Shown: piece by piece, positions 573-24,666 of the stretch
Layout of the letters: the number at the start of each line of letters is the position of its first letter
Position numbering within the stretch: the first letter of the stretch is position 1
From: an archaeon
Lineage (GTDB): Archaea; Iainarchaeota; Iainarchaeia; Iainarchaeales; JAAZKV01
Length of the DNA stretch: 44,405 bases
Reading direction: 5' to 3'
Assembly: GCA_036170245.1 (NCBI GenBank)
Contig: JAVHOV010000016.1
Span: forward strand, 1 to 44,405
The notes under the pieces: model-generated
Seen by the model: only the letters and a program-made list of their open reading frames with translations
What the model was told of the DNA's origin: nothing
Database searches by the model: none
Position numbers and translations under genes: made by a program

Positions 573-606
573 TTTTGTGAAGAAAAATAATTACGTTAAT
601 TGTCAT
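573..606 (+). repeat. 34-bp direct repeat, copy 1 (TTTTGTGAAGAAAAATAATTACGTTAATTGTCAT)
   Basis: Identical to 1125-1158; degenerate third copy at about 438-470. Confidence 0.9.
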
Positions 607-621
607 TAAAAGAAAAAAATG

Positions 622-861: not shown

Positions 862-1063
862 TTAACTCAACCATTTGAACGCCTACAAACTTATTCTTTG
901 ACTGGTTTGTGTCTTGTTCACAAAGAGCAATAACTTCTTTTACTCTTTTAATCAATTCATCCATAGATTTTGCTTGTGTGTGGCAACCCTCAAGTTCAGG
1001 AACATCAGCAACCAAAAAGCCATCAATGTCTTGCTCTATAATTACACTATATTGTTTACCCAT
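854..1063 (-). CDS. hicB: HicB family antitoxin (short form)
   Basis: VIIEQD.DGF.VADVPELEGCHTQAKS.DEL HicB signature. Confidence 0.9.
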   Translation of the reverse strand: MGKQYSVIIEQDIDGFLVADVPELEGCHTQAKSMDELIKRVKEVIALCEQDTNQSKNKFVGVQMVELNA

Positions 1064-1124
1064 AATAATACCTAGATTAGATATAATTAAAACAACATAA
1101 AAAGTTATCTAAATAGAACTAAAG

Positions 1125-1158
1125 TTTTGTGAAGAAAAATAATTACGTTAATTGTCAT
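1125..1158 (+). repeat. 34-bp direct repeat, copy 2
   Basis: Identical to 573-606; the two copies flank hicBA. Confidence 0.9.
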
Positions 1159-1163
1159 GAGAA

Positions 1164-1517
1164 TTAATTTTTTTTATAACAATAAATTTTATTGTATTTG
1201 TCATGATCCATTATATTTAAAACAAAAGCAATTATTTCAATCTCAGTACCATTATTTTTTAATGTATAATCCATTCTCCAAAAATTTGACAACTTGACAT
1301 GAAAAAGGTTTGTGACACCATATTCTTTTGAATATTCATTAGGGATGAGTTCTTTTCCAACAGGATCCCCATAATGAGGATTAATTTTAATTAACTCCAC
1401 TTTATTCTTTATTGATTTAAGAATAGAACTATTTATTTTTGAATCAGAAGCATATTCATTTAATTTCTTAAAAGCAAGTTCTGCTTCTTCGGACAAAATT
1501 ACTCTAACTTTTTTCAT
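1164..1517 (-). CDS. RelE/ParE-like putative toxin
   Basis: V.LSEEA..AFKKL...NPHYGD...LFHVKL..FWRM.YTL...DHDKY pattern; 4-nt overlap with upstream gene. Confidence 0.55.
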   Translation of the reverse strand: MKKVRVILSEEAELAFKKLNEYASDSKINSSILKSIKNKVELIKINPHYGDPVGKELIPNEYSKEYGVTNLFHVKLSNFWRMDYTLKNNGTEIEIIAFVLNIMDHDKYNKIYCYKKN

Positions 1518-1798
1518 AATTCAAAACCTTTTGAAATTGCTTTTTCTAATTTAGAATTATTATTTTCCACCCAAGTAATCCCTTTTAATGAGAAAACAAT
1601 TTTGTTACTATCTTCAAGATAACCCAAAATTATTTTGAGAGTATTATGATTAACCTGTTTTGGAAGAGCTCTTTTTAAATCAGCGACAGTAAATACACTT
1701 GATGGAATTGACTTCATTGTTTGTTCCACCATTAGAACTGTATTTAGCGTGGGTGAAGAACATTCTTTCTCTTGAGTTTTAACAAACATACAAAACAC
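1514..1798 (-). CDS. Small winged-helix protein, putative antitoxin/regulator
   Basis: SPTLNTVLMVE...LKRALPKQVNHNTLKIILGYLEDSNKI..KGITWV; coupled to RelE-like gene. Confidence 0.5.
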   Translation of the reverse strand: MFCMFVKTQEKECSSPTLNTVLMVEQTMKSIPSSVFTVADLKRALPKQVNHNTLKIILGYLEDSNKIVFSLKGITWVENNNSKLEKAISKGFEL

Positions 1799-1891
1799 CG
1801 ATTAATTAATACCAAATTGTTATCAGTTAGTAAATATAAAGGTTTGGGTAAAGCAAAGCTGATAAATGAGTCTTATTAGTAAAGAATTCTT

Positions 1892-2536
1892 TTAATCGTA
1901 AAGTTCTTTTGTGAATTTGTTAAGCTCTTCTTTATTCAAGTGCTTTAGCATAAAGTCAGCATATTTTTGGAATATTCCTGACAACTGAACCAAACCATCC
2001 TGGAACTCTGCCTGAGTAATTTCTATCTTATCTGGCTTTATTACTTCTATTGAAGTAGGGCCATAGTAGAACAAGAACAACATCAAAGTCGAAAAGTCCT
2101 TGACAGTCAAAGTTACTTCAATGAATGAAGAGTACATTTCATCCTCTTCAACTATTTCTGCAGGAACTATATTGTAGATAGTAAAATTCTTTTCAGATTT
2201 AATTGCAGCAATTATTTTTTCCAAGTGCTTTGCAAGCAAATTCTTTTCAATTGCTTTCAATTCAATTATGGCGCTGACTTTTATCTTAAACGAATCAGCT
2301 TCAGAAATCTTTTTTCTTTTCTGCAATTCATCAATAATATCCTGTCTCAATCTATACTTTGTAGGATAACCTTCTTTTAGAACTAAACCAAGTTTTAGCA
2401 TCTGTTTTAATTCAAGAGAAAGTTTGTCATAAGGCAAGTTTAATTGTTTATGCAAGTCTTCTTCAGTCTTTGGATCTGAAAGCAACAAAAGAGCAATCTT
2501 TTTTTGTTCGTCACTAAATCCACTCATAAAAATCAA
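1892..2536 (-). CDS. Hypothetical protein with N-terminal wHTH-like region
   Basis: 214-aa ORF; helix-turn-helix-like N-terminus (LKQMLKLGLV..EGYPTKY). Confidence 0.55.
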   Translation of the reverse strand: MIFMSGFSDEQKKIALLLLSDPKTEEDLHKQLNLPYDKLSLELKQMLKLGLVLKEGYPTKYRLRQDIIDELQKRKKISEADSFKIKVSAIIELKAIEKNLLAKHLEKIIAAIKSEKNFTIYNIVPAEIVEEDEMYSSFIEVTLTVKDFSTLMLFLFYYGPTSIEVIKPDKIEITQAEFQDGLVQLSGIFQKYADFMLKHLNKEELNKFTKELYD

Positions 2537-2697
2537 TCAATAATATAGAAGCAAGCTACTCTTGGGTTTAAAAAAGTAATTTTAGAAGCAAAATTCGGGA
2601 ATTTAAAAGAAAAGTAATAAAAAGAACCAACGCACTAGTACTATTGACGATTATGAATTTCATTTTACTTGATATATTTAATGAATTTGCAAAAGGA

Positions 2698-2982
2698 ATG
2701 AGTTTTACTCTCCCTGATGCAGCATCAACTGCAACTAACCTTGTAGCTAACCCAACTATATTAGTAATAGGAATAATTCTGATTATTGCAACCATATTTA
2801 TTTTGTTTTTCTTAAAAAAAGTAATAACCAATAGTATTCTTGGAGCAGTAATTTGGGGAATCAGCATTTACTTTTTTCACATTGAGTTACCCTTGATTCC
2901 AAGTTTTGTTATTTCAGTAATCATTGGGCCCGCAGGAATTGGAACAATGTTGCTTCTAAAGTTTTTTGGCCTACTGGTGTAA
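2698..2982 (+). CDS. Small membrane protein, BofA-like
   Basis: Three hydrophobic segments, NSILG...IGPAG.G..LLL pattern; start uncertain. Confidence 0.5.
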   Translation: MSFTLPDAASTATNLVANPTILVIGIILIIATIFILFFLKKVITNSILGAVIWGISIYFFHIELPLIPSFVISVIIGPAGIGTMLLLKFFGLLV

Positions 2983-2986
2983 AAAA

Positions 2987-3349
2987 ATGGCAATAATTAG
3001 CAGACTAAGGAAAGCAACTACTAATCTTAAAACAAATTCTAAATTATCTAAAGAAGTATTGAAACTAATTTGGAAAAATAGGAATGCAAAAAAACTTCCA
3101 AAAGAAGGTTCATTTGAATCTGTGATTTTAAGAAGACAATTAAAGGAAAGTACTATGGCAAAACCCATAAAAAATGCTTTAAGAAAAGGACTCACAAGAG
3201 TAATTCACAAACACTTACAAAGCGGAAAAATGTGGGTTGATTTTAGAAAAGATATTAAAGCAATAGAAACTAAAAGAGGAAAAAAGGTTGAGGAAGAAGA
3301 ACTTGAAACATTATGGAACAAGTGGAATACTGACCACGCAAATTGCTAA
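2987..3349 (+). CDS. Basic hypothetical protein
   Basis: Lys/Arg-rich ORF filling the gap between genes. Confidence 0.55.
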   Translation: MAIISRLRKATTNLKTNSKLSKEVLKLIWKNRNAKKLPKEGSFESVILRRQLKESTMAKPIKNALRKGLTRVIHKHLQSGKMWVDFRKDIKAIETKRGKKVEEEELETLWNKWNTDHANC

Positions 3350-3367
3350 ATTAAATTATAACAAAAA

Positions 3368-4519
3368 CTATTTTTTAATTAAATTTTCTAAAGAATTTTT
3401 ATCATTATCTAACTCTTCACCAAACAGAGCATAATTACTCCACTCATTATTGCTAAAGATAAAAAAATCATTATCAGTAATTAAAGTGTTAATGAAGGAG
3501 GAGTGAACAGAATCATTTGAAACCAAAAAGATGCCTGAGTCATTTCCAACAAATCCTAAATATCCTCCTGTCTGAGGTTCAATTAATTCTGCAGAATTCA
3601 AAACAGAAATATCCTCTGAAGAAACAATCTTTTTATTTGCAAAAGCTAAAACACAATGTCCATTAACTTGACCCGTATTAGGATCAAAAATTGATCCGCA
3701 TACAATAACAGGAAAAACATTATTTTTATCCAAATATTTCTGTGTTGCATTCTCCAAGTACCAAGTGTTGTCAAAGTTAGACCAAAATCGGCTCCCTTTT
3801 TTTTCTACCCACGCAAATAAAGTCGGTTTTTTTCCATTGCACGATTCAATCAGTGAATTATATTCAGCTTTGAAAAAAAGGGAAAAATCTTCGCAATCTC
3901 CCCCCTTATTCTTTATGAATTCAGAAATTGTCTGAAGCTTATCAGAAACATTTGAAGTAATTAAATCATCTTTATATTTGTAATTAATAAACTCAGAATT
4001 AACCAAGTGAAAACACCCCAAATTAATCTGACAAACTTTACTGGTTTCTTTTTTGCAACTTGATTTCAAATTCAAAAGAATGTTTTCATGATTTCCCAAA
4101 ACAGAATTTGAACTAAACCAATCAAGGGAAGATTGAATTTCTATTTGATAATCATTAATTTTTGAAATTGTGCTGTCAACCTCATCCTTCAAATTAGAAT
4201 ATGAATATTCTAAAGCATTGTTCTTTGATGAAAGGGAATTATATTCACCATTCAATTTATTTAAAGCAGAATTCAAATCAGAATTTTCTTTATTGAGAGA
4301 AAAAATAATTGAATTCAATGAAGAAACTTTTGAGTCATACCCTGCCACAAAAGCAGAATACTCTTTTTTCAGATTCTCAGAAGAAATATTTGAAAAAACC
4401 AATAATCCAATACACACAACTAATAGCACTACTAAAATCAATATTGCCCAAATATATTTTGTGGAAGATGTTTTATCAAAAAAGAAGGGCTTTTGTTTGC
4501 TAACACTATTTTTATGCAT
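3368..4519 (-). CDS. Membrane-anchored coiled-coil protein with transglutaminase-like Cys protease domain
   Basis: N-terminal TM, coiled coil, GDCEDFS ... GHC ... IEPQTG triad pattern. Confidence 0.7.
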   Translation of the reverse strand: MHKNSVSKQKPFFFDKTSSTKYIWAILILVVLLVVCIGLLVFSNISSENLKKEYSAFVAGYDSKVSSLNSIIFSLNKENSDLNSALNKLNGEYNSLSSKNNALEYSYSNLKDEVDSTISKINDYQIEIQSSLDWFSSNSVLGNHENILLNLKSSCKKETSKVCQINLGCFHLVNSEFINYKYKDDLITSNVSDKLQTISEFIKNKGGDCEDFSLFFKAEYNSLIESCNGKKPTLFAWVEKKGSRFWSNFDNTWYLENATQKYLDKNNVFPVIVCGSIFDPNTGQVNGHCVLAFANKKIVSSEDISVLNSAELIEPQTGGYLGFVGNDSGIFLVSNDSVHSSFINTLITDNDFFIFSNNEWSNYALFGEELDNDKNSLENLIKK

Positions 4520-4572
4520 GAAAAAATAAGAGACTAACTCCCTTTAATACTTTATTCAACTACAAAATAATT

Positions 4573-5181
4573 GTGGAACTAAACGAAAGCTTTAAACTTG
4601 CACAAGTCAGAAATGAACTACTTGATCATGCAAAAAAACACGCTCTTTACAAAAACGTTTTGGATACAAAAGGACATATTGTTTTTGGAAGAGGAGACGA
4701 TGAATCAAAAATACTTTTTATTGGAGAAGCTCCTGGTTTTACTGAAAATGAAATAGGAAAACCTTTTGTGGGAAGAAGCGGAAAACTCCTTGAAGAATGG
4801 GTTAAGGAACTAAACATAAACCAAAAATATGCAATAATGAATGTTGTCCCAATGATTCCATTAAGTGAGGACAAAAAAATAAGACCCCCTACTCCCGAAG
4901 AAATAAACTACTTTTTGCCATACACAATGAAAATGGTTAATACAATCAATCCAAAAGTTATAGTACTTTTAGGAAAAAGCGCAGCAAGAGCATTTGGGAA
5001 AGAAGAAATGAAAGTAGGGCAAACTACTGAATATGAAGGGAAAAAAATGTTTTTCATTTACCATCCTGCATACTATCTTCGAAATGGCAGAAAAGGGCTT
5101 GAAGATTTGACTAACTTAAAAAAACTATTAACCCAAGAAGAAGACAAAAACAAACAGAGCTCAATAAAAAACTTTTTTTAA
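4573..5181 (+). CDS. udg: Uracil-DNA glycosylase, family 4-like
   Basis: IGEAPG, PFVGRSG, RPPT.EE, HPAY motifs; C-terminal PIP box QSSIKNFF. Confidence 0.9.
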   Translation: MELNESFKLAQVRNELLDHAKKHALYKNVLDTKGHIVFGRGDDESKILFIGEAPGFTENEIGKPFVGRSGKLLEEWVKELNINQKYAIMNVVPMIPLSEDKKIRPPTPEEINYFLPYTMKMVNTINPKVIVLLGKSAARAFGKEEMKVGQTTEYEGKKMFFIYHPAYYLRNGRKGLEDLTNLKKLLTQEEDKNKQSSIKNFF

Positions 5182-5226
5182 AAAATAAAAAAGCAAAAAA
5201 AATATTTAAAAAAATAATAGAAAGGG

Positions 5227-6009
5227 TTACCTTACATAAGAAAGGCAACCATCAACTTTTTCTTCAACATCTTGCTGTTCATGAAGATTTGTTGTTAATT
5301 CTTTGAATGCTTTTTCAATTGACTTAGCATCCTTTTCAATGCTCTTCATTTTCAGCTTCAAATTGAATCTCTTTGAAACAAGTTCAATTACTTGCTTTGC
5401 TGAACCTTGATCCCCATAAACTAACTGAGGATTAGTTTCACCCATTAAGCAAGCACCCTTTATTCCGTGCAACTTCCCAATACCAATTAACAATCCCGCA
5501 GCACCAGAAATCAATCCTTCTTTCTTGTCTTCCTTTGCTCCAAACTTCTTCCAAATATTAACTATCTCATCATCAGTTCCTGCAACAATTACTTCAGGTT
5601 TTTTATTCAATCTGTTGTCCCCTACATTTAACCCTGCTAGAGTTATACTTTCAGTAACTCCAACGCTTTTGAAAAAAGAAATTAAAGTCTCGGCAAATTC
5701 ATAATGCTCATGAGATGAACCAACTTTAAAATCAAGAGTAGGCTGAACGGGTCCAGAAAGAATCAAGAAATCCTTTCCTTTAAAATTGAAGTAAAATATT
5801 TCATCCTTAATCAAAAATATTTTTGAATCTTTTGTGTGAATGCTTGGAGGAAAAGAATCTGACAAAATTTCTGCAATCTTTTCAGTCTTTAATTGCTTAA
5901 GCAAATAATCAACAGCTATTTTTCCAACTAGACCAATTCCTGGCAGACCGACTAAAAGTGTTGCATCCTTAAGCTGAACTTTTTTTGTGACTAATATTCT
6001 TGTAGGCAT
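5227..6009 (-). CDS. Proteasome assembly chaperone (PAC2 family)
   Basis: GLPGIGLVGKIA, ISGAAGLL, CLMGET motifs; typical position after aIF2-alpha. Confidence 0.85.
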   Translation of the reverse strand: MPTRILVTKKVQLKDATLLVGLPGIGLVGKIAVDYLLKQLKTEKIAEILSDSFPPSIHTKDSKIFLIKDEIFYFNFKGKDFLILSGPVQPTLDFKVGSSHEHYEFAETLISFFKSVGVTESITLAGLNVGDNRLNKKPEVIVAGTDDEIVNIWKKFGAKEDKKEGLISGAAGLLIGIGKLHGIKGACLMGETNPQLVYGDQGSAKQVIELVSKRFNLKLKMKSIEKDAKSIEKAFKELTTNLHEQQDVEEKVDGCLSYVR

Positions 6010-6078
6010 AGCAGAATATTATAAGAAAAGGAATATAAAGCTGAATGAGAAAGAAGAACAGAGACGAAATTAGCACAA

Positions 6079-6840
6079 TTATTTCTTTTCATCTCTTGTG
6101 AATTCGAAAGAAACGCCTGCTTTCTTTGAACTCTTTTCAGCAGATTCAACTAACTTAGTAAGAGTTTTGTCTGCTTCCTTAAAAGTCAAGCCAGAACAAG
6201 AAATATTAAAAGTTCCTCCACCAGCGTAAGAAACAATACAAGTTTTAGTTGCTTCAAAATCAGCCAAAATACTTTTGATTGTTGCAAGTCCGCCAGCAGC
6301 AAGACAAGAAAGTTTTGCTTTTCCAGAAATTTCTTTCTTTGAAACAACAATATTATCTTTGATTAATTGTTTAACAGGCAGAACCCATTCTTTTGCAACT
6401 TCACTTGAAAAATCATAACCCAAAGCAATTTTTTCAAACGCTTCATATAATGAACCGTGAACTTGAGTTAAGGGATCAGCAACTGCAGCCCAAACTTCAG
6501 CAAATGGTTTATTTGTTGACTTTGAAAGAATTTCAATTAATTTTTCTTCTCTATTTATCTGCTTGAATTGAGTCAGAACCTGTCTCTCTCTCATTGGATT
6601 AACTCCGGCAAAAGCCAAGTCAATCTGTTTTTTTACTAAATCAACGTTAAGTACTTTTGCAACTCTAACCTGATTCATTTTGACAAAATTTCTAATATTT
6701 TTAACCCAAGAAGAAGAAACATTACTGATATGGATAAACCCTCTAGCATTTTTGTATTCTAAAAGCTCAACAAAAACACCATAGTCAAGGATTTGAATTA
6801 CCTTTACTACAACAAAATCGTCTCTATTTGGGAATTCCAT
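6079..6840 (-). CDS. eif2a: Translation initiation factor 2 alpha subunit
   Basis: S1 domain YGVFVELLEY..ARGFIHIS.VSSSWVKNIR; GSLYEAFE. Confidence 0.92.
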   Translation of the reverse strand: MEFPNRDDFVVVKVIQILDYGVFVELLEYKNARGFIHISNVSSSWVKNIRNFVKMNQVRVAKVLNVDLVKKQIDLAFAGVNPMRERQVLTQFKQINREEKLIEILSKSTNKPFAEVWAAVADPLTQVHGSLYEAFEKIALGYDFSSEVAKEWVLPVKQLIKDNIVVSKKEISGKAKLSCLAAGGLATIKSILADFEATKTCIVSYAGGGTFNISCSGLTFKEADKTLTKLVESAEKSSKKAGVSFEFTRDEKK

Positions 6841-6894
6841 AAGAAAAACTCTATTAAAAACACTTAAAAAACTCCCTTTGAGGAAAAAAATAAA

Positions 6895-7434
6895 CTATTG
6901 TCTTTCTTGGGCAATTTTTCTTGTAATAAATAATTTAGCAACTTTAATAGGGAGCTCTACTTCTTGACCTTCTACATACGGGCCGTATTCTTTCATATCA
7001 GTCCCTACAAAAGTAGGAACATTCTGAAGTATTGTTAACTTAGTTAAATCAGTTGAAACTTTCTCATTTTCTCCAAAAAGAGAAGTAAATATTTCTCTGT
7101 GTTCAGAAAGAACTTTAAAAATTTTCTTGAAAGTTTCTTTCTCTTCAGTAGCCATGTTACTGTCTTCATACTCATCAGTATGAGCAGAAATTAATGCTTT
7201 GTTCAAAATCTTTTTTTCACGCATTTGGAAAATATCATCAACTATCCTTTTCAAATTAGAAAACTCTCTTGCATCAGAAGAAGAAAAATTCTTTAAAGAT
7301 GCTAAGTATTTTTTTTTCTCTTCTTCAACAAAAGTTTTTAGAGAATCTATAAAATCATCATCAACTTCAACTAACTTTGAAGTGTTCTTTTCAAGTCTGT
7401 GAATTCTTCTTAGCTCATCATAATCAAGACGCAT
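6895..7434 (-). CDS. GINS complex subunit (Gins51/Gins15 type)
   Basis: REKKIL helical domain plus C-terminal B domain VPTFVG.DMKEYGPY; downstream of priS. Confidence 0.85.
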   Translation of the reverse strand: MRLDYDELRRIHRLEKNTSKLVEVDDDFIDSLKTFVEEEKKKYLASLKNFSSSDAREFSNLKRIVDDIFQMREKKILNKALISAHTDEYEDSNMATEEKETFKKIFKVLSEHREIFTSLFGENEKVSTDLTKLTILQNVPTFVGTDMKEYGPYVEGQEVELPIKVAKLFITRKIAQERQ

Positions 7435-7504
7435 ACACAAAACCAAAGTAACTTAGGTAACAAATCAATTAAAAAGAATACTAACCCCAAAAAAAGGAAT
7501 AAAA

Positions 7505-8659
7505 TCAGTCTTTTGAAAGAACTGCACAACCCTTTCCAAGCAAATAAACTGCAACAAAAAGAGGAAGCTCTATATTTACATTATCATAAGGCCCAAAACT
7601 CTCGCCTTTAAGAGAAAACTTTGGAGTTTTATCAATGTGAAGTTTAACCATTTCATCAGAACCAAAAACTATTGGATCTACAAAAGGATCAAACTTTTTT
7701 AATTCATCAATAGAAAGAGTTTTTGCAACAAACCCTGTCTGGCCATGAAGGGTTTGAGGCACTCTTATAATTTTGTGCAAATCAACACTAGTCTGACGGT
7801 CAATTGGACTCATTTGCTTTGACACAACATAATCCAAAATATTTTTCCACAAATCAGACCTCTTCTTTCCGTCAATTGGAAACAATAAACCCTTGTCCAA
7901 AGAATCAAAGATTGTTTGTTTTTCAAGCAAAATATTCTTTGTTTTCTTTTCTGAAAACTTAATTACATTTGAAACTGTTTTGGCGTCAGAATTAAATAAA
8001 TCCCTAATTCCAGTCAAAATTCTTCTGCTCCAAAGTCCTTTTACATTTGGTTTTGGACAAGAAAGAGAATCAAAGTAAAATCCTAAATTAACATAATCAA
8101 TTCCAAACCCGGTCAAATAATCAACAAGCTCAATTCTTGATTTTTTATTCAACGACTGGATTGATTCACTCCTTAAGTGAACATGATACCCTGCTTTTCC
8201 TGAAAAATTAATTGAAACATCTTTACCGGAAAAACCAAAATCATTTTCTAAAAAATCAAGCAGGCGAAACACTTGTACCTTTGCTTCTTCTAAATGCTCA
8301 TGCAAAAACCACTGAACTCCATTAATTTCTTCAATAGCAATCCCGAGTTCATCAGCATCAAATTCATAAATTAAATCAGCTTTAATCCACTCTTTTGATT
8401 GCATGGGAGTTCTTGAAGGAAATTTGTAATAGGAATTAGAATAAGAAAAAAACAAAGGAGATTCATTACGCAAAAAGTCATTCATTTCTTTTGCATTGAA
8501 AAAAGAAAGATTTCTATTTGCAATTTTTCTTTTAAATATCCCAAAACCAAATTCACGCATTTCTAAACTTGGAACTGAATCAATGAAATTATTTTTGTAA
8601 AACTCGGCAAACTTCTTTTTTAAAAATTCTGCTTCAGGGGAAACTTCTGTAGGGTACAT
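7505..8659 (-). CDS. priS: DNA primase catalytic (small) subunit
   Basis: REFGF, ADLIYEFDAD, FSGKAGYHVH, ID..TS.D.HKIIRVP.TLHG.TG. Confidence 0.9.
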   Translation of the reverse strand: MYPTEVSPEAEFLKKKFAEFYKNNFIDSVPSLEMREFGFGIFKRKIANRNLSFFNAKEMNDFLRNESPLFFSYSNSYYKFPSRTPMQSKEWIKADLIYEFDADELGIAIEEINGVQWFLHEHLEEAKVQVFRLLDFLENDFGFSGKDVSINFSGKAGYHVHLRSESIQSLNKKSRIELVDYLTGFGIDYVNLGFYFDSLSCPKPNVKGLWSRRILTGIRDLFNSDAKTVSNVIKFSEKKTKNILLEKQTIFDSLDKGLLFPIDGKKRSDLWKNILDYVVSKQMSPIDRQTSVDLHKIIRVPQTLHGQTGFVAKTLSIDELKKFDPFVDPIVFGSDEMVKLHIDKTPKFSLKGESFGPYDNVNIELPLFVAVYLLGKGCAVLSKD

Positions 8660-9693
8660 TAATTCACTTCCTTTGGATTCGAACTTGAATTTTTTATTCT
8701 GTTATTGATTCTTAATTTTGCCAAATAATATTGCATAGGGTGCTTGTAGTTACAAACTTTATTGCACTCAGGCACCTTAAGCCCGTTTTCTGCAAGTTTT
8801 TTACATCCAGGCGCAGATATTTCTTTTTCATAAATCCTTGAAATATGATACTCTGCAATGGCTTTCTTAAAATCCGGGCTCTTTGAATAAAGGGAAATAA
8901 GTTCAGTTTTACTCATCCCTAATTGATACAAAAATGAAGCAAGGGCTAAACGAGCACTGTAGGATAATTTTTTCCCACTCAACTGGTCAGTGTACAACGC
9001 ATGCATACACGGAGGGAAAAAATTTGGTTCAATCTTTCCGACCAATTTCAAATCAAAAGACTTCTTTTCCATCACCACAAGCTGCGAATCAATGCTTCTT
9101 GCAAGAGTAAGAATGTTTTTTGGAATACTTTTTTCAGGGATTGGAAGGGAGTTGAAAACCTTAGCATAAGCTTTTTCTGCCAAAAATCTTGCAAAATCAT
9201 TTGAGTTAAGCAAAATTTTTCCGTTATACACCTGCTTATTCACAACTTTGCTTTCATTATCCACAAAAAATATCTGCAAGTAATCAAGCAAATCAACTTC
9301 CACAAAACCCTTTTCTTCAGAAACTTTGTATTTCAATTTAAAATCATCCGCAAGATCAATACACAAGTCAAAAGTAAAATCAGCTTCAACTAAATTGTTA
9401 AAAGTGTTCTTGAAAACAAACATAGAAAATTTTTCAATCATATTGCTTGTCTTCATTGCAGAAACAAACATTTTTGAAATAGGAAAAGCAATTACTTCAA
9501 GCTCTAAAACTTCATTAGTTGGATTTTGCGAATCAAAAACATAAGGAGTGTTTGAGAAAGCTCTTGAAACCATTAAAGCGGCTTTTTTAACAGCAGTTTC
9601 AGAAACATCATCAACTGAAATATTCATTTCTTTTAGTATATCACGGGCACGCTCTGTAAAAGGAAACTTCTGTGCAAAAAAGAGCTTATCCAT
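8659..9693 (-). CDS. priL: DNA primase large subunit
   Basis: KFPF N-terminus; FPPCM...ARLALASFL...PGC...C...C..HPMQYY Fe-S domain. Confidence 0.88.
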   Translation of the reverse strand: MDKLFFAQKFPFTERARDILKEMNISVDDVSETAVKKAALMVSRAFSNTPYVFDSQNPTNEVLELEVIAFPISKMFVSAMKTSNMIEKFSMFVFKNTFNNLVEADFTFDLCIDLADDFKLKYKVSEEKGFVEVDLLDYLQIFFVDNESKVVNKQVYNGKILLNSNDFARFLAEKAYAKVFNSLPIPEKSIPKNILTLARSIDSQLVVMEKKSFDLKLVGKIEPNFFPPCMHALYTDQLSGKKLSYSARLALASFLYQLGMSKTELISLYSKSPDFKKAIAEYHISRIYEKEISAPGCKKLAENGLKVPECNKVCNYKHPMQYYLAKLRINNRIKNSSSNPKEVN

Positions 9694-18371: not shown

Positions 18372-18406
18372 TTAAAAAAATAATTAAAATCAGAAAGAAT
18401 TCTAAA

Positions 18407-19969
18407 TTAATTTTTGTTCTTAGCCAAAACGGGCTTTGACAAAAGTTTTTTTGCTTCTACTAAAATATTTTTTTTAGGATAAATTGCTTTTGACAATTGT
18501 TTCAAGAACTGAGTTTTCTTCTGTGAATTTTCAAGAGCAACTTCTAATACTTCAACAAGAGTTGAAACTGGAATTATTTTTACTTTAGCCAATTCTTCTT
18601 TGCCAACAACAATATCCCCAATATTACTTTTTGGAACAATTATTTCTTTGAAACCTGCTTTAATTGCAGCACTGACTTTAGCTGAAACTCCTCCCACAGG
18701 AAGAACTTCACCTCTTACAGAAAGAGAACCAGTCATTGCAACAATTTGCCTCACTGGCAACTCTTCTGCTGCTGAAATTACTGCAGTGGCAATTGAAACA
18801 CTAGCACTGTCCCCTTCTACACCTTCATAAGTCTGAAGGAATTGGATGTGAATATCTTTCAAAAATTCTTTTCCGCTAATTTTCTTAAAAATTACTGAAA
18901 CATTTTGCACAGCTTCTTTTGCAATTTCCCCTAATTTTCCAGTAGCAATAACTCTGCTTTCAGTTGTTGAACTTGAAGGAGTAACTGCGGCTTCAATCGG
19001 AATAATACTTCCAGCACTTCCGTCCCCGAAAACTGCGAGTCCATTAACTCTCCCAATTGTAACTCCATTGATTAAATAAACTTCATAATCTTTCTTTGTA
19101 TCAATCATTTTGTCAACGATTTGATTTTCAAGAGTTCTAGCAGACAACTTTGCTTCAAAAACATCTTGTCGCGTAACATATTTATGAGATTTTTCTTTTG
19201 CAATATCTCCAGCCCCTCTTACAAGTCCACCAAGGTCACGAAGCTTCAAAGTCAATTTACCTTTATGGTCACTTCTTCTTCTTGCTTCAAAAATAATTTC
19301 TTCAACAGCATCTCTAGCGAAGTGAGGAATTTTTCCATCCTTAATTACTTCCTGTGCAACAAACTGTGCAATCTTTTTTCTATTCTCATCATTGTCTTCC
19401 ATATCAACATTCATATAAACTTCGTAACCGTAACCTCTAATTCTGCTTCTTAATGCAGGGTGAACTTTTTCTAAATCCTGATAATTTCCTGCTGCAATTA
19501 AAACAAAGTCACAAGGAACTGGTTCTGTTCGAGTCATTGCCCCACTTGAGTTTTCGGACTGACCAGTAATAGAATATTTCTTTTCCTGCATTGCTGTCAA
19601 AAGTTCCTGCTGAGATTTGTGAGACAAAGTTGCAATTTCATCAATAAATAAAACTCCTCCACTAGCTCTATGAATCATTCCAGGTTCTACTCTTAAGTGA
19701 GCTGGAGTACCTAAGCCACCTGAATTGTGAACCAAAATATCTTCAACGAATAAGTTTCCTGTTTCGGTTGTAACATTATAAACGTACCCCTTATGTTGAC
19801 GCTTAGAGATTTTTGGAGAAAAGGTAGTAACTGATTTATTAAGTTTGAACGAAGGCTTTGAAGAAGCTTTGCGTAAAGAATTTTTTGGAGTAAGTTTTTC
19901 TTTAGAAGTTATTGAGTTAGTTTTCTTAGAACCCTTAACAATCACTGATTTAGTTTTCTTTAGAACCAT
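18407..19969 (-). CDS. lonB: C-intein fused to C-terminal half of LonB protease (Walker B to protease domain)
   Basis: [55 protein letters not shown] (Ser) and GGVSAK (Lys) dyad. Start is ATG 19969 or ATG 20026 (overlaps RT stop). Confidence 0.9.
19724..19969 (-). other. C-terminal half of split intein (IntC; blocks F and G)
   Basis: Ends in canonical His-Asn followed by Ser+1 at 19723-19721. Confidence 0.88.
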
Positions 19970-19989
19970 AACCAATACGTTTTGGAAAA

Positions 19990-20005
19990 CAATTAAATAC
20001 CTATT
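19990..20005 (-). promoter_or_regulatory. Candidate TATA-box promoter for the IntC-LonC gene
   Basis: AAATAGGTATTTAATT about 25-30 nt upstream of ATG 19969, spacing compatible with a leaderless archaeal transcript. Confidence 0.4.
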
Positions 20006-20025
20006 TGAGGAGAAACTAAAACTCA

Positions 20026-21324
20026 TTAAAAGCACAATTTTGTGAAAGAAAACTCTTTGATTGTTTGTTGTTTTAAGCGATAATTATTTGCGTGCTTAAA
20101 ATGCCCCAAATAAGAACTAAAAGAAGAACGAAAAGCTTTATCTTCAAAAGAACCTTTCTCAAAGAAAAAAATCTTGCTTTCTTGAAGCTCTTTACTTGCC
20201 ATCAAAAGTTTATTTTTGAAATTATGTAAAACTCTCTTTCTGACAAAAACACTCCAAGGCTTAATAATATAACCCAAAAAATCAATACCATTAGATAGGG
20301 GCAAAAGATTTACTTTATTTTTTAAATTCAAGAGCAAATGAGTTTCAACAAAATCCTTAATCTTCCAAAACCAATTTAACAATTCTTCTTTAGATTCTGA
20401 GAGCAAAATAAAATCATCAACGTATCTGACATAGTATTTGCATTTTAATTTTTTTTTTACAAAATTATCCAATTCATTCAAATAGACGTTTGCAAAGAAT
20501 TGGCTCGTGTGATTACCAATTGGAAGCCCCTTACCCTTCTCAACATTAATTAAGGATTTATAATTTGGAACTAGTCCACTAATCTCTTTTGTAGATTTTT
20601 GGATAAAATTTGTTGCAGGATCATGAAAAATAAGTTTTTTTGTAATCCAAAGCAAATCTTTTTTAAAATAATTATCAAAAAAACTAAAGCTATTTACTTT
20701 ATTTTCAATTATAAAAAACAAAATCTGCTTATCAATACTCATAAAGAAGTTACTTATATCTAGTTGTAGAAAATATGCTCTCTTTCTTCCAGAATTACCC
20801 CCAATTATTTTTCTTGTATTTCTTTGTAAATGTTTTACTGCTTTATGAGTCCCTTTATTTTTTCTACAAGCAAAACTATCTTTAGAAAAACTTGGTTCAA
20901 AAATAGTTTCAAGTGCGCTTACGATTATATGATGAACTATTCTATCTCTAAAATCTGCCGCAAAAATTTCTCTCGGCTTTGGTTTTAAGACAGTAAAACA
21001 AACAGAACGCCTCGGCTCATAAGTCTTATTATTTAAAGAATAATACAATTCTTGCAAATTTTGTTCAAGGTTTTCCTCAAACTTTAAAGCATTAACTGTA
21101 TTACGCTTTCTTTTTCTACAACTAATATAATTATTGTAAATATTTTGAAAGCTAAATAGAGCCGAGGGCGTTTCTTTTTCAAAACGAACACAACGAGCCT
21201 GGTTGTTGTTGTCGTTGTCCTTATTGTCGTTGTTGATGTTACCATTGTCGGTATTCAAGTTGTACGCGTTGTTCGGGTACGCAGGCATACTCGTTGTGTG
21301 CGAACCATCCATAGCTAAAACCAT
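20026..21324 (-). CDS. DGR reverse transcriptase (N-terminus includes translated TR)
   Basis: [48 protein letters not shown] (DGR SQ motif), [15 protein letters not shown]. Confidence 0.95.
21176..21296 (-). repeat. DGR template repeat (TR)
   Basis: 121 nt, 13 AAY codons; aligns with 22001-22118. Confidence 0.95.
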
Positions 21325-21490
21325 ACAGCCCTAGCAGTTTTTTTCACCACTTGGGTTGTTCGCATCAAAAAGAAACCTGCTATTAACGCTTCCTCGCCAA
21401 GGCAAAGAATTCTGAGCCGTTCTGTTACTATTTGCCTCACTAACTTTGTTAATGAGCATAAAAATTTTTGAAAACATATTTAACCACCTA

Positions 21491-21838
21491 TTAATATTTT
21501 TGACTATTTAACCACGCTTGAGACTGTTTAGCTAAATCAACTACTAAACCAGAAGAATACTCATAAGAAGAAAACTTTTTAAAAACACCAACTTCCCTAC
21601 ACAAACGAACAACTAGCTTCAATTCCTCTACTAGCGCAACCAACTCTTGCAAAGCATTCCTTTTTTCAGGCAAAGAATTCGCACGCATTATTTGACAAGC
21701 TATTCCTCTACTTTTATTCCTTAAATCAGTTCCAAGAACATATTTATCATATCTTGAAAAACCCTTTACTAACTTTTCAAAATAAACACACAAATCAAAA
21801 GCCTTCTTATAAATCGGCAAATAATCATACTGAGCCAT
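21491..21838 (-). CDS. avd: Accessory variability determinant (Avd-like four-helix bundle)
   Basis: YLPIYKKAFDL...F.RYDKY.LG.DLR...LAKQ..AW; RBS GTGGTG before ATG 21838; lies between target and TR. Confidence 0.85.
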   Translation of the reverse strand: MAQYDYLPIYKKAFDLCVYFEKLVKGFSRYDKYVLGTDLRNKSRGIACQIMRANSLPEKRNALQELVALVEELKLVVRLCREVGVFKKFSSYEYSSGLVVDLAKQSQAWLNSQKY

Positions 21839-21966
21839 AAAAAACACCACTTTAAAATTTTTTTCGTGCTCCCTCAAAGGGAGCACTTATTCTTCTCTCA
21901 CTTCACGCATAATTCCTTAACGACGAATAATCAAACACCCCAAAACACATTGGTTTTGGGTATCTC

Positions 21967-21985
21967 GCAAATGCTTTGCATTTGC
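21967..21985 (-). promoter_or_regulatory. DGR target-recognition hairpin downstream of VR
   Basis: GCAAATGC-ttt-GCATTTGC perfect 8-bp stem 11 nt past the target stop codon. Confidence 0.75.
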
Positions 21986-21996
21986 TCAATCACCAA

Positions 21997-23029
21997 CTAA
22001 TTTTCAAAACGAACACAACGAGCCTGGAAGACGCCGTAGTCCTTATCGCCGAAGCCGATGCCACCATAGCTGGTATCCAAGTAGTACGCGTAGTTCGGGT
22101 ACGCAGGCATACTCGTTGAACTCCAGTAATAATTACATCCAATAAACATAGAATTACAAGTCCCAGTCGAATAATCATAAATTGCATTAATTTCATTCAC
22201 AGTAGGCAACCTCCAACCACTACCAGGAAGACTCGGCGTATTATTATTACAATAATCTAAACTAGACTGCCAAGTAATATTAATACCTTTATCAGCTTTC
22301 TGCCACATCAAACCAGAATTCAAATCACTAACAGTACCATTAGAATTGTCTCTCCAAACGTGCTTATAATCTGCACCATAAATTTCCCCATCTTCACCAG
22401 TCCCAATACAACTTCTTGAACTTCCACTTACCTCATAACAAGTTGTTTGTCCACTTCCAAGACCATAATACATCGGAACAGGATCAGCGCAACTCGGGCA
22501 CTGACTAGCTAACAAAGTTGCGTTAACCACATAAGGAGAACAATCAAACATCACCTTAGCAGGATACTTTTCAGTCTTACTCAAACCATCCCGAGTAACA
22601 TACGTAACCGTCACATCCTGAGAAACAACTTTCCCCTCAACACAAACAGCACTCGTATCAACCCTAAAAAACTTATTACTACCCTGCGCCAAATCCTCAG
22701 AAAAAGAAACATTACTATCACCCACACTAACATTAGAAACAGTAATAACATCCCCACTATTATTCAACAAACGAACAACAAAATTACCATCACTAGGATC
22801 AACCAAAGACTCAGTAACACCAATAACCTGACTTTTCAAACCCAACTGATTACCAGAAGAAGAAACTTGCGAACTATTATCAATTTGAGTAATAATCAAA
22901 CCAACAACAATCAAACCAATAACAACAACAACCGCAATAATAACCAAATACTCAATAGTACCCTGCGCTCTAGAATAAGAAACTAATTTACTATTCTCTC
23001 TCTCTCTCTCTCTCTCTCTGCGAATTCAT
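21997..23029 (-). CDS. DGR target: class III signal peptide (pilin-like) protein with C-terminal DUF1566/Lcl C-type lectin-fold domain; frameshifted at (GA)12 in this assembly
   Basis: RAQGTIEYLVIIAVVVVIG upstream of the listed ORF start; GQTTCY, DN.NGTV.D..SGLMWQ, WRLPT..E, YWSST, ARCVR; ATG 23029 with RBS GGAGTGG. Confidence 0.88.
22001..22118 (-). repeat. DGR variable repeat (VR)
   Basis: 20 substitutions vs TR by manual alignment, 19 at TR adenines, plus one codon deletion; encodes the target's C-terminus. Confidence 0.95.
22995..23019 (-). repeat. (GA)12 dinucleotide microsatellite
   Basis: tctctc run directly after the 5' codons ATG AAT TCG of the target. Confidence 0.95.
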
Positions 23030-23059
23030 ATTTTCCACTCCTTGAAGTTTGACTAAACA

Positions 23060-23282
23060 TACCAGTAACAAAGAACCAAACTTATATATAAATATTCTAT
23101 AATTTGCTGTGAATGCTCCATCCTTACGATGTCTACCGGCAGAATAATTTTTGTTTATGTTGCCTGTAGTCAATATTCCTATAGAATCCAAAAGCCGTTC
23201 TAACTCTTTTAAATCTTGCAATTCTTTTTACTGACAATATTTCCTCTTTTGAGGGTTTATTGAAATTATTTGAAAAATACAT
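23060..23282 (-). pseudogene. Probable LAGLIDADG homing endonuclease remnant
   Basis: LKELERLLDSIGI.TT...RKDG.FTANYRIFI resembles the second half of a LAGLIDADG domain; truncated and out of frame with ATG 23282. Confidence 0.5.
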
Positions 23283-23286
23283 TCAA

Positions 23287-23443
23287 GCCACCTCCGCAAA
23301 AAATGAATTTTTTCATAGACGGCTCTGCTGCTTTTGGAGACATTAAACCCTTTAGCCAACAGGCGACCCCGCTAAACGCGGGGTAAAGGTTTAAGTCGAG
23401 AAAAGCAGAGTCTAAAGAAAAAATTCACCAAAGAGGAGGTGGC
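23287..23443. ncRNA. 157-nt long imperfect hairpin (structured RNA or MITE-like element)
   Basis: Nested pairs GCCACCTCC/GGAGGTGGC, TGAATTTTTTC/GAAAAAATTCA, TAGAC/GTCTA, CTGCTTTT/AAAAGCAG, TTAAACC/GGTTTAA, CCCCGC/GCGGGG. Confidence 0.6.
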
Positions 23444-23476
23444 AATGTTTTGAAAAATACAATACTAGAAAAAAGA

Positions 23477-23851
23477 TTAAGCAGTTGTTTGAGAAAGTTT
23501 GAACAAAGAATCTTTTTCAGAAACTTTTTCTGCATTCTTATCCCCAGTCTTTGTAATTATTTTGTGCTCAGGAGTAAAAGTAGCTTTCTTTTCACCAATA
23601 GAAAGTTCAACAACTTCCCCTTCATAAGGATGTCTGTTTAAAGAATAAATTCTTGAAGGAATTATTTTTTCATCTTTCATTCCAAGCACATAAACAATTT
23701 CTTTTTTAGGTAAAACCATTGCTTCATATCCTTTTTCGTGTTTCTCAACTAGATCAGGATATTTTTTTGACATTGTTGCCCAAAGTTTTCCATAAGAAAT
23801 TTCTTTCCAAACACCCTTTAGACAAACAACGAACGAATCTTCGTCAATTGA
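23477..23851 (-). other. N-terminal half of split intein (IntN, about 124 aa; blocks A and B)
   Basis: SIDEDSFVV block A after HDPLQS; YEGEVVEL......TFTPEHKI block B; ends at stop 23477. Confidence 0.88.
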
Positions 23852-24547
23852 CGATTGCAAGGGGTCGTGACGAACATCACCAAGTAAAGCACCAGCTCTA
23901 CTCCCTGTTGCTTCAAAGAAAGGAGCAATCTTTTTTCCTAAATTATTAACTAACAATTTTGGAGTAACGTTAGAATCCTTACTGCGCATCTGCCCGCCTA
24001 AAGCAACTCCAATTAATAAAAATCCACCAACAACAATTAATGCTGCATAAACAACATCAGGGTACCATTTCAATTGCCATAGTAAAGTTGAAAGAACCAT
24101 CCAGCCAATCGGAAGCAAAAGAGAAACAAGTCTCATTGAGTCATCCTGTTTTGCAGTTTCAAAGTGAGCTGCTTCAATAATTCTTTTTCCTTCCCCAGCT
24201 TTTACTACTCTAACTCGTGGATTATTTGGGTCCTCTGAATTAGGGTAAATCAAAATATCCTGCAACTGAGAAACTGGTAAAATTTCACTCATTGCTTGAG
24301 CTAATAAAGATTTTCCTGTCCCTGGAACACCCACAAGCAAAACATTTCTTTTCTGTGCAGCAGCTTTTCTAATAATTTCAACACTTTTCTCTTGACCAAT
24401 TACTTGCTCAATCAAAGAAGAAGGAACTGCAATTTCAGAAGTATTTGTAAAACTAGTTAAATCAAAATCTTTAACGTTTGCAACAACACCTTGAATGGGA
24501 GCATCAAGTTTTTTTACAGAATGAGCTTTTTTCTTTTTTGCACTCAT
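23477..24547 (-). CDS. lonB: N-terminal half of LonB protease fused to N-intein
   Basis: QVIGQE, Walker A GVPGTGKS, two TM helices, PKLLV.N, GALLGDVRHDPLQ. Confidence 0.92.
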   Translation of the reverse strand: MSAKKKKAHSVKKLDAPIQGVVANVKDFDLTSFTNTSEIAVPSSLIEQVIGQEKSVEIIRKAAAQKRNVLLVGVPGTGKSLLAQAMSEILPVSQLQDILIYPNSEDPNNPRVRVVKAGEGKRIIEAAHFETAKQDDSMRLVSLLLPIGWMVLSTLLWQLKWYPDVVYAALIVVGGFLLIGVALGGQMRSKDSNVTPKLLVNNLGKKIAPFFEATGSRAGALLGDVRHDPLQSSIDEDSFVVCLKGVWKEISYGKLWATMSKKYPDLVEKHEKGYEAMVLPKKEIVYVLGMKDEKIIPSRIYSLNRHPYEGEVVELSIGEKKATFTPEHKIITKTGDKNAEKVSEKDSLFKLSQTTA

Positions 24548-24666
24548 GCACATAGTCTGGTGGAGAAGGTTAAAAAAGGTATTTGGGAGAAAAAAATATG
24601 TTCAAAAGGCCAAAAAATAAAACTTAAACAAGTAAGTTTTAAAATAACAACGCCCCACTATAGTGG

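Follow-up and report, generated by a model that had tools for sequence, protein, structure and literature searches.

The window, by which we mean the whole 44,405-nucleotide stretch of archaeal DNA that was analysed, carries on its minus strand a gene for the membrane protease LonB that is broken into two open reading frames, each of which also encodes one half of an intein. In the ORF listing, the LonB N-extein and the N-terminal intein half (IntN) occupy ORF 23477..24553 (358 aa), which ends GDVRHDPLQ-SSIDEDSFVV...TPEHKI...SQTTA and a stop codon, and ORF 18407..20035 holds the C-terminal intein half (IntC) followed by the rest of LonB. The gap between the stop codon of the N-half and the start of IntC is about 3.5 kb, the distance given in the preliminary description. 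That description was silent on what the gap contains, which is the remnant of an endonuclease gene and a full diversity-generating retroelement (DGR). The features are given below in the order in which they are read; a slash marks a splice junction.

23855..24553, minus strand: LonB N-extein, 233 aa (residues 1-233), from the ORF and Pfam
23480..23854, minus strand: IntN, 125 aa, beginning SSIDEDSF, from alignments, the Intein_splicing profile and complex prediction
23276..23445, minus strand: conserved structured RNA leader, after the stop codon of IntN and ahead of the former endonuclease operon, from folding and covariation
23088..23213, minus strand: remnant (about 126 nt) of a LAGLIDADG homing-endonuclease gene, inside ORF 22991..23221, from comparison with relatives
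21997..22947, minus strand: DGR target gene, 316 aa, with a hydrophobic N-terminus and a C-terminal Lcl_C domain (PF07603, E 1.6e-19)
22001..22118, minus strand: DGR variable repeat (VR) within the target gene, from TR/VR comparison
21491..21886, minus strand: DGR Avd-like accessory protein, 131 aa (bAvd, 27.7 bits against a cut-off of 40)
21176..21296, minus strand: DGR template repeat (TR), rich in Asn codons, in the 5' part of the reverse transcriptase frame, from TR/VR comparison
20026..21324, minus strand: DGR reverse transcriptase (RT) frame, 432 aa (RVT_1, E 3.7e-19)
19724..19969, minus strand: IntC, 82 aa from the ATG at 19969, ending ILVHN/S, from the Intein_splicing profile, alignment and complex prediction
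18407..19723, minus strand: LonB C-extein, beginning SGGLGTPAH and including the stop codon, from the ORF and Pfam

All features of an archaeal LonB, namely an AAA+ module with a membrane insertion, a LonB LID and an S16 protease domain, are found, distributed over the two ORFs. The N-extein contains Walker A (GVPGTGKS) and two hydrophobic membrane segments and ends GDVRHDPLQ; Pfam assigns it the N-terminal part of Mg_chelatase/AAA with the AAA/Walker A region. The C-extein contains Walker B (GGVLFIDE), the LonB LID and the Lon_C protease domain with the GDSAS serine and a downstream lysine, and its Pfam matches are Sigma54_activat/AAA_5, LonB_AAA-LID and Lon_C (E 1.6e-29). In the preliminary description, too, both Lon halves looked intact.

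IntN, described beforehand as a domain of about 124 aa with blocks A and B, contains Ser1 in block A and TPEH in block B and is followed by the stop codon at 23477..23479. IntC consists of a 37-aa Lys/Ser-rich extension and a conserved core of about 45 aa, in which blocks F/G end in ILVHN before Ser+1. The basic extension is unusual, and most relatives are without it. The sequence TATTTAAT lies 22 nt upstream of the ATG at 19969, and an alternative GTG start at 19945 would give an IntC of 74 aa extending down to 19724.

The junction had been placed one residue too late (HDPLQS-SIDED). We place it before the first serine (HDPLQ/SSIDED), because this serine aligns without a gap to Cys1 of related inteins and because of the sequence of intein-less orthologues: the end of the N-extein joined to the start of the C-extein gives exactly the sequence of intein-less orthologues from the same genus. 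The latter align only to residues 1-235 of the N-half. Residues associated with splicing are strongly conserved. Position 1 is Ser or Cys in 11 of 11 aligned IntN sequences (Ser in the window), all four residues of TPEH are invariant in 10 of 10, and all seven IntC sequences share the terminal Asn and Ser+1; the penultimate His is present in six of these seven and is replaced by Ser in one relative (G040). Against the Pfam Intein_splicing profile, both halves scored below the gathering score of 35.8: IntN matched positions 15-92 (E 0.005, 17.1 bits) and IntC positions 124-155 (E 0.009, 16.3 bits), and a contiguous allele from a relative, G039, matched the whole profile (E 3.8e-16, 59.7 bits). 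Since the two halves cover complementary parts of the profile and both are kept in many genomes, the observation goes beyond chance.

Complex prediction gave the IntN-IntC pair a score of 0.85, as compared with 0.00 for the best control. Three runs agreed in at least 86% of contacts, with a partner pLDDT of at least 60. When the tool was calibrated, 116 of 157 solved complexes and 2 of 215 mismatched pairs attained the mark used. Predicted IntC contacts were confined to residues 41 and 43-83, leaving the 37-aa extension outside the interface. This prediction supports association of the halves; resemblance to split inteins of solved structure may have contributed to the score. We conclude that LonB is very probably rebuilt from the products of two genes by protein trans-splicing of a natural split intein, with the splicing chemistry proposed from conserved residues. 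The proposal of a natural split intein in the preliminary description is supported by these residues, by the insertion site and predicted association, and by the conservation, selection, lack of a second LonB and contig tiling described below.

An alternative is that the intein halves serve as non-covalent dimerisation domains that hold the LonB pieces together without splicing, as described for a ribonucleotide reductase in fragments, which domains originating from a mobile element bring together (PMC3045599). Association is indeed what the complex prediction supports. However, purifying selection across families has preserved every residue that only the splicing chemistry requires (Ser/Cys1, TPEH, the terminal Asn and Ser+1). 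A module for docking alone could do without them, and this alternative is improbable.

Conservation of the split bears on a second alternative, in which an intein-bearing lonB was broken by insertions and its halves are decaying pseudogenes. Among 41 related genomes, 13 gave matches that cover IntN, nine of them in frames of 344-428 aa that end after IntN, and 25 matched the N-extein only and are thus without an intein at the LonB site. A species-level genome scan found the IntN frame ending after IntN in 20 of 20 loci, with an IntC-LonC frame 0.3-4.4 kb downstream in 13 of the 20. In a search of 215 genomes of the phylum, 64 matched, 53 of them (by row count) from model position 1. Just four of these 53 site-specific matches lay in frames of more than 1000 aa; the other 49 or so were in shorter frames, some of which are cut by contig ends. 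The split LonB intein is present in about 50 of the 215 genomes, and the split is conserved across families. Comparison with related genomes, suggested beforehand, thus revealed the split intein in many of them, along with intein-less and contiguous alleles. In most comparisons dN/dS was 0.09-0.16 for IntN, 0.03-0.12 for IntC and 0.05-0.25 for the exteins; IntN values were higher against two genomes with a diverged IntN (0.34-0.38 for G016 and 0.39 for G005). Judged by these ratios, both intein halves and both exteins are under purifying selection.

The genome (86% complete, a 43-contig draft whose unassembled DNA could hide a further copy) contained no other AAA+ LonB. Its sole other match was an 843-aa protein with a Lon_C domain and without an ATPase, and a relative that is 99% complete (G025) had no second LonB beside its split gene. 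A search for another lonB, proposed in the preliminary description, thus yielded no AAA+ copy, and elevated dN/dS combined with an intact lonB elsewhere, raised there as a sign against splicing, was not found in the assembled genome. Decay is evident in the endonuclease gene of the gap, and DPANN genomes are reduced, as a dead lonB would lead one to expect. In contrast, both frames are uninterrupted and full-length here and in dozens of other genomes, dN/dS is low in the exteins and in most comparisons of the intein halves (0.03-0.16), conservation extends to the natural C-terminus of IntN and to the IntC start, and the assembled genome gave no replacement AAA+ LonB; loss of LonB function is very unlikely.

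Contigs of two sequencing runs tile 17500-22947 and 23028-25500 with no differences. In run X1 a single 11.7-kb contig covers LonC, IntC, RT and TR without a difference, overlapping unitigs reach 22947, and one further contig covers 23028-25500. Four sequencing runs that contain the stretch almost whole, these two among them, may be the source sample and do not count as independent. No contig of the two runs aligned bridges the (GA)n stretch at 22987-23027, which lies between the remnant of the endonuclease gene and the target gene of the DGR. Both halves lie on the minus strand at the original locus in the original order and orientation, with the LonB neighbours kept (a 407-aa membrane protein and an RNase Z-like gene, common to G034, G025 and G039), as in a fractured gene. 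An assembly or binning artefact joining LonB halves and DGR from different organisms, to which the breaks of unitigs at the TR/VR repeats and the (GA)n run and the 43-contig draft might point, is extremely improbable given the tiling contigs, these shared neighbours and the same gene orders in G021, G005, G012 and G022, including Avd-RT-IntC-LonC in the separately assembled G021 and G005.

Nearest to IntN in the gap lies the structured RNA leader. In its outer stem, CCACCUCC pairs with the Shine-Dalgarno-like GGAGGUGG, which directly precedes an ATG. The leader has a minimum free energy of -54.5 kcal/mol (z -7.87), and an alignment of eight sequences contains 46 pairs, 13 of them with compensatory changes; Rfam held no match. 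The endonuclease gene that follows is a remnant, with about 932 nt and 228 nt missing relative to G012. An intact free-standing endonuclease between the halves, characteristic of a fractured gene, is thus lacking in the window and present in relatives: of 20 loci, 15 carry an endonuclease gene in the gap, and in 12 it is intact. The relatives' protein matched Pfam LAGLIDADG_3 at E 0.18 only, and a PDB sequence search found no match. Its AF2 model (pLDDT 86.8) gave 95 Foldseek matches at E<=0.001, the top ones being I-Tsp061I (E 1.6e-8), E-DreI, I-DmoI, PI-SceI and PI-PfuI, and by this model it is a LAGLIDADG-fold endonuclease with two motif helices. The relatives' gap also holds other cargo, namely a TPR protein, a phospholipase-C-like protein and an ATPase.

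The remainder of the gap carries target, Avd, TR and RT, which are predicted to make up a complete DGR. Adenines of the TR are the site of 19 of the 20 substitutions between TR and VR; the two repeats also differ in length by 3 nt at one place, which is atypical. The Avd-like protein is 97% identical in G005 and 84% identical in G021 at the same position, and RT orthologues lie directly upstream of IntC in both genomes. Within the clade, three to five genomes have the DGR nested between the two parts of LonB. This nesting appears to be new; among the matches listed, titles and abstract starts of the literature that names both DGRs and split inteins contained no description of a DGR nested in a split intein.

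We propose the following mechanism. A membrane-anchored polypeptide with Walker A, a transmembrane hairpin and a terminal 125-aa IntN would meet a soluble one that starts with the 82-aa IntC and continues into Walker B, the LID and the Ser-Lys protease domain. The two intein halves would form one HINT domain and carry out class-1 trans-splicing, in which Ser1 undergoes an N-O acyl shift, Ser+1 attacks and the terminal Asn cyclises, and the product would have the peptide bond found in intein-less orthologues. From comparison of alleles we infer an order of events. The ancestor would have been a contiguous LonB intein with a LAGLIDADG endonuclease, an allele that persists at the same site in relatives and Thermococcales. 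The endonuclease part may then have become a free-standing gene, giving a fractured gene. After the split, the gap would have been neutral ground in which this lineage acquired a complete DGR cassette, and the endonuclease gene would later have been mostly deleted in this genome, leaving an immobile, host-dependent split intein.

A more speculative reading, which we consider doubtful, is that the gap is a heritable landing pad and that the DGR spreads between LonB alleles as cargo of an IntN/LAGLIDADG endonuclease/IntC homing element; if so, DGRs would have a route of mobility independent of phages and plasmids. Consistent with this reading, the LonB extein trees place the combination of intein and DGR at three separate points, in each case sister to an intein-less genome (two or three of these pairings are well supported, depending on the tree). 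Synonymous divergence is 0.12-0.48 for IntN versus 0.6-2.2 for the exteins, and the pieces are mosaic: in G005 the Avd gene is near-identical (dS 0.14) and IntN is 53% identical. However, IntC has diverged as much as the host gene, as have Avd and RT in G021, sequence comparison revealed no co-conversion tract, and repeated loss explains the same pattern.

In the literature examined, natural split inteins are known almost only from DNA replication and repair enzymes of cyanobacteria and of phage-like metagenomic DNA. The literature searched contained no description of a split LonB intein, and the preliminary description likewise knew of none. Natural split inteins are scarce, and protein engineering makes heavy use of them. 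Here, DPANN archaea (Iainarchaeota/Diapherotrites and Micrarchaeota) have a large, diverse family fixed in a membrane-anchored protease. Because Ser occupies both nucleophile positions, no catalytic cysteine is predicted to be needed, a chemistry that is of interest where splicing has to proceed in an oxidising environment. One LonB site allows the origin of split inteins to be followed. The host is a tiny DPANN archaeon with a reduced genome. If splicing occurs as predicted, quality control in such reduced cells would depend on post-translational ligation at the membrane. The DGR in the gap indicates that a fractured gene can serve as a safe harbour for other mobile elements.

Like the DnaE split inteins, that of LonB is a natural split fixed in a clade and interrupts an essential or near-universal host protein; the two differ in host protein, domain of life and layout. 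The DnaE halves are far apart and not known to be accompanied by an endonuclease, whereas most LonB halves are 0.3-4.4 kb apart. The PolB split intein of Nanoarchaeum equitans likewise belongs to a DPANN archaeon with a reduced genome but has a different host gene, DNA polymerase B; it is not known from any other organism, and no endonuclease or cargo is known to lie between its halves. DGRs of DPANN archaea were reportedly described by Paul et al. in 2015 and 2017. They resemble the DGR of the window in having a target with a C-terminal VR, an Avd-like protein, TR, RT and adenine-specific TR/VR differences, and the latter differs in its position between split-intein halves.

Contiguous LonB inteins of 333-476 aa occupy the same site in Pyrococcus abyssi, P. 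yayanosii, P. kukulkanii, Thermococcus nautili and T. zilligii; HDPxQ/SGG had been named beforehand as the Thermococcales Lon intein site. In Thermococcales and in archaeon GW2011_AR10 the site is identical (GDVRHDP[FL]Q/intein/SGGLGTP). These inteins have a C-terminal splicing block similar to that of the window (…YN[VL]TTE.GNL…N/S) and, likewise, an endonuclease of LAGLIDADG type. They are single frames of 981-1124 aa and all Cys-first, in contrast to the two genes, Ser-first intein and separate decayed endonuclease of the window. A parallel in architecture is offered by 'fractured genes', in which a split intein interrupts the gene for a conserved enzyme and a hairpin RNA precedes the endonuclease gene (Dassa et al. 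2009, PMC2677866); the LonB locus shares both features. The endonucleases of that paper are GIY-YIG or Vsr-like, and it does not use the term LAGLIDADG (PMC2677866). The LonB locus differs in that its host is an archaeal membrane protease, its endonuclease, which in the window is reduced to a remnant, has a LAGLIDADG fold, and its gap holds a DGR or, in relatives, other cargo.

Judged from the open reading frames of the window, every gene of the region is encoded on the minus strand. The preliminary description of a lonB gene split by intein halves was correct; both reading frames were as described.

23477..24553, minus strand: LonB N-half, 358 aa, with Walker A, two hydrophobic segments and then GDVRHDPLQ
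First ATG at 19969, minus strand: LonB C-half, 82 residues running straight into SGGLGTPAH and the remaining LonB sequence

After GDVRHDPLQ come the 125 residues of IntN, which start with SSIDEDSF, include TPEH and run to a stop codon. The C-half, about 3.5 kb downstream, opens with the 82 residues of IntC and supplies the Walker B motif, the LonB LID and a Pfam Lon_C domain (E 1.6e-29). The region previously assigned to the junction held up, but its exact start did not: the first of the two serines opens the intein, not the second, because in a gap-free alignment it falls on Cys1 of relatives and because intein-less orthologues from the same genus show the uninterrupted sequence. TATA-like elements could be read about 16-22 nt before the ATG of both halves, which suggests that each half is carried on its own leaderless transcript.

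IntN and IntC matched complementary parts of the Pfam Intein_splicing profile (positions 15-92, E 0.005, and 124-155, E 0.009, respectively), both with scores under the gathering score. A contiguous allele in a related genome (G039) has a 429-aa intein within a 1130-aa frame and matched the entire profile (E 3.8e-16). The residues needed for splicing chemistry are conserved: all 11 sequences compared have Ser or Cys at intein position 1, TPEH is unchanged in all 10 compared there, and neither the terminal Asn nor Ser+1 varies among seven. The earlier statement that this is the Lon intein site of Thermococcales was borne out by comparison with LonB of five species (Pyrococcus abyssi, P. yayanosii, P. 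kukulkanii, Thermococcus nautili and T. zilligii), each of which has a contiguous intein (333-476 aa) at exactly the same site; their junction reads RHDPFQ/C and their last block resembles that of the window IntC.

IntC is basic (pI 10.4; core 9.8), whereas IntN is near neutral (pI 7.75). Prediction of the IntN-IntC complex from alignments of both halves scored 0.85, compared with 0.00 for the best of three controls, with contact agreement of at least 86% over three runs and partner pLDDT of at least 60; in the calibration of the tool, 116 of 157 solved complexes reached this mark, as did 2 of 215 mismatched pairs. Since solved split inteins exist, the result may owe something to likeness to them. 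Predicted contacts of IntN involve only IntC residues 41 and 43-83, so that a 37-aa Lys/Ser-rich extension of the window IntC would lie outside the interface.

The gap between the halves contains a complete diversity-generating retroelement (DGR).

21997..22947, minus strand: DGR target gene, Lcl_C domain (E 1.6e-19)
22001..22118, minus strand: variable repeat (VR), 20 differences from the template repeat
21491..21886, minus strand: Avd-like gene, bAvd match below threshold
20026..21324, minus strand: reverse transcriptase (RT) frame, RVT_1 (E 3.7e-19)
21176..21296, minus strand: template repeat (TR), inside the RT frame

Of the 20 substitutions, 19 fall on TR adenines and one on a TR guanine. 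The VR is also shorter than the TR by 3 nt, with one AAC/GAC-type codon missing. Given this indel and the substitution at a guanine, the DGR may not have rewritten the window VR since the indel arose. The DGR is nested in the same way in related genomes: G005 has IntN, an endonuclease gene and the target gene on one contig and the VR end, Avd, RT, IntC and LonC on another; G021 has the order Avd-RT-IntC-LonC; and in G012 and G022 IntN, endonuclease and target gene are followed by the contig end within the target gene. No RT was found in loci L050-L069. G021 also has a second target-Avd-RT copy (L074, contig C42, 376..2662) whose RT is 76% identical to that of the window and whose Avd matched in two overlapping pieces, possibly through a frameshift; the part of the contig downstream of this copy yielded no IntC-LonC.

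A misassembly could in principle juxtapose such parts. In two sequencing runs with 98-99% of the words sampled from the stretch, one 11.7-kb contig contained LonC, IntC, RT and TR with zero differences, overlapping unitigs extended the cover to 22947, and a separate contig matched 23028-25500. The sole stretch of the locus left unbridged by these contigs was a (GA)n/(TC)n run at 22987..23027, just upstream of the DGR target gene. These runs possibly represent the source sample and are therefore not independent; independent support comes from other genomes. Contigs from two runs of other habitats (X5 and X7; small shares, at least 90% likeness) covered mostly RT, Avd, target and IntN and hardly the Lon exteins, and missing cover there is not evidence.

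The N-half had matches in 38 of 41 related genomes. In 25 the match ended at residue 234-235, that is, without an intein. IntN was covered in 13, nine of which have open frames of 344-428 aa stopping after IntN; the other four comprise the contiguous 1130-aa frame, a frame of 822 aa that has another intein upstream, and two fragments at contig ends. When one genome per species was scanned with the IntN alignment, 20 loci were recovered, including Ca. Forterrea sp., Ca. Iainarchaeum, Ca. Diapherotrites and Ca. Micrarchaeota. The frame stops after IntN in all 20, and in 13 of them the same strand carries an IntC-LonC frame 0.3-4.4 kb downstream. A scan of the phylum (215 genomes) gave 64 matches, 53 of them, by row count, from model position 1, which takes in the Lon residues RHDPLQ, and only four of these 53 were in frames longer than 1000 aa. 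The dN/dS of IntN was 0.09-0.16 against five relatives; comparison with G016, a more distant genome, gave 0.34-0.38, and comparison with G005, where IntN is only 53% identical, gave 0.39. For the IntC core dN/dS was 0.03-0.12, and the exteins had values of 0.05-0.25.

It had been proposed to look for another lonB, and no second AAA+ LonB was found in the genome itself (867 kb, 43 contigs, 86% complete). The sole other match there was a protein of 843 aa (locus L087, contig 12, 586..3117) whose Lon_C domain lies near the N-terminus and which has no ATPase (AAA+) module; similar proteins of 763-862 aa were a weak second match in most relatives searched with the C-half. The related genome G025, which is 99% complete, has split LonB only. 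Programmed bypass or RNA-level joining over 3.5 kb is implausible with three complete genes inside, an argument also made by Dassa et al. 2009 (PMC2677866). The analysis shows the anatomy of LonB, the identity of the site, the conservation of the split and the selection on both halves. We conclude that the LonB split intein is real and natural, and that it is very probably functional, with trans-splicing as the inferred outcome.

Gap cargo varies among genomes or is absent. G034 and G025 have a Zn-dependent phospholipase-C-like protein (PF00882, E 4.5e-7) there, G016 has a TPR protein, and G021 has a 412-aa ATPase-like protein; a 183-aa protein without family is also among the gap genes of these four relatives.

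L036 (G034), 4569..5294: gap genes
L038 (G025), 4746..5522: gap genes
L035 (G016), 3939..5352: gap genes
L042 (G021), 4336..5571: gap genes

In G040 the LonB halves are on separate contigs with unrelated neighbours. LonB is cut again in some relatives by a second split intein at PVP/C...HN/CDFVLVAAG.

L037 (G033), 275..3408: second split intein
L038 (G025), 2303..8789: second split intein
L054, L060 and L061: also with the second split intein

Here the endonuclease is still fused to the N-part, and the next reading frame overlaps by 4-7 nt and opens with an IntC of about 40 aa. Such a LonB would need two trans-splicing steps. In G025 the Walker A motif is also interrupted by a contiguous intein.

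A separate open frame follows IntN in 15 of the 20 scanned loci and is intact in 12; the others have one in-frame stop (G016), a frameshift (L056) or a 73-aa remnant (G033). Its profile retrieved nothing relevant in a PDB sequence search, and Pfam gave LAGLIDADG_3 alone (E 0.18). An AlphaFold model from a 12-sequence alignment (pLDDT 86.8) matched the folds of I-Tsp061I (E 1.6e-8), E-DreI, I-DmoI, PI-SceI and PI-PfuI among 95 matches at E<=0.001, and this fold search settled the predicted product as a LAGLIDADG homing endonuclease. In locus L059, IntN and the endonuclease share a frame with one stop codon between them, which shows a route from the contiguous to the split form.

23088..23213: endonuclease remnant in the window, about 126 nt, with 932 nt and 228 nt absent relative to G012
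Start about 23282, minus strand: small open reading frame in the window, with intact copies aligned in G012, G021, G016 and G005

The small frame (about 50-57 aa, acidic C-terminus) is conserved in relatives after a folded RNA and before the endonuclease gene; in the window its second half has been replaced because of the 932-nt deletion. The RNA, of about 140-150 nt and just 3′ of the IntN stop, is conserved and strongly folded (MFE -54.5 kcal/mol, z -7.87); its consensus from eight sequences has 46 pairs, 13 with compensatory changes.

23276..23445, minus strand: folded RNA in the window
L044:4180-4336, L042:2778-2932, L035:6719-6873: further copies
L073:513-678, L054:6464-6623, L056:3213-3378, L062:6498-6657: remaining copies

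The outer stem pairs CCACCUCC with the Shine-Dalgarno-like GGAGGUGG, a few bases 5′ of an ATG, and the arrangement resembles an occluded ribosome-binding site serving the endonuclease operon. It is retained in the window despite loss of the endonuclease gene. No Rfam family was found in 17500-25500.

Trees of the C-extein and N-extein (23 rows each; G005, G006 and G007 excluded as fragments) placed genomes with intein plus DGR at three positions, each beside intein-less genomes. G021 pairs with G002 (100/100 and 100/99 in the C- and N-extein trees) and G022 with G024 (99/92 and 89/82). G000 and G012 join G008 and G003 at 99/97 in the C-extein tree; in the N-extein tree support for joining the four is only 85/96, and G000 is not sister to G012. 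Synonymous divergence of IntN was 2.5- to 7-fold below that of the flanking exteins in four genome pairs (G012, 0.15 versus 0.62-0.74; G020, 0.12 versus 0.82-0.87; G021, 0.42 versus 1.5-2.2; G022, 0.48 versus 1.1-1.2), which suggests that lineages have recently exchanged the IntN (and endonuclease) segment. Divergence of IntC, and of Avd and RT of G021, equalled that of the host gene, and G005 has a near-identical Avd (dS 0.14) beside its 53%-identical IntN; from this unevenness, the insert is a recombining mosaic. Three intein-bearing/intein-less sister pairs showed no co-conversion tract around the junction; differences were even (13-30% per 100 nt), so that intein gain and loss look alike.

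We propose that IntN and IntC would bring together a membrane-anchored N-half and a soluble C-half, and that class-1 trans-splicing via Ser1 and Ser+1 would ligate them to normal LonB. Its history would have begun with a contiguous intein with endonuclease; the endonuclease would then have become a free-standing gene, cargo would have entered the gap, where read-through translation was no longer required, and the endonuclease would have decayed in the window genome.

Our literature searches (mostly titles and abstract openings) returned no description of a split intein in Lon/LonB or of a DGR inside an intein. LonB is a new host protein, and this archaeal clade a new clade, for a natural split intein. 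The intein has a probable fractured-gene history, and the nested DGR is unusual. LonB loci with an endonuclease between the halves have the same layout as the fractured genes of Dassa et al. 2009 (PMC2677866). The nucleases of that paper are of GIY-YIG and Vsr-like type and occur in genes of DNA metabolism; LAGLIDADG appears nowhere in its text.
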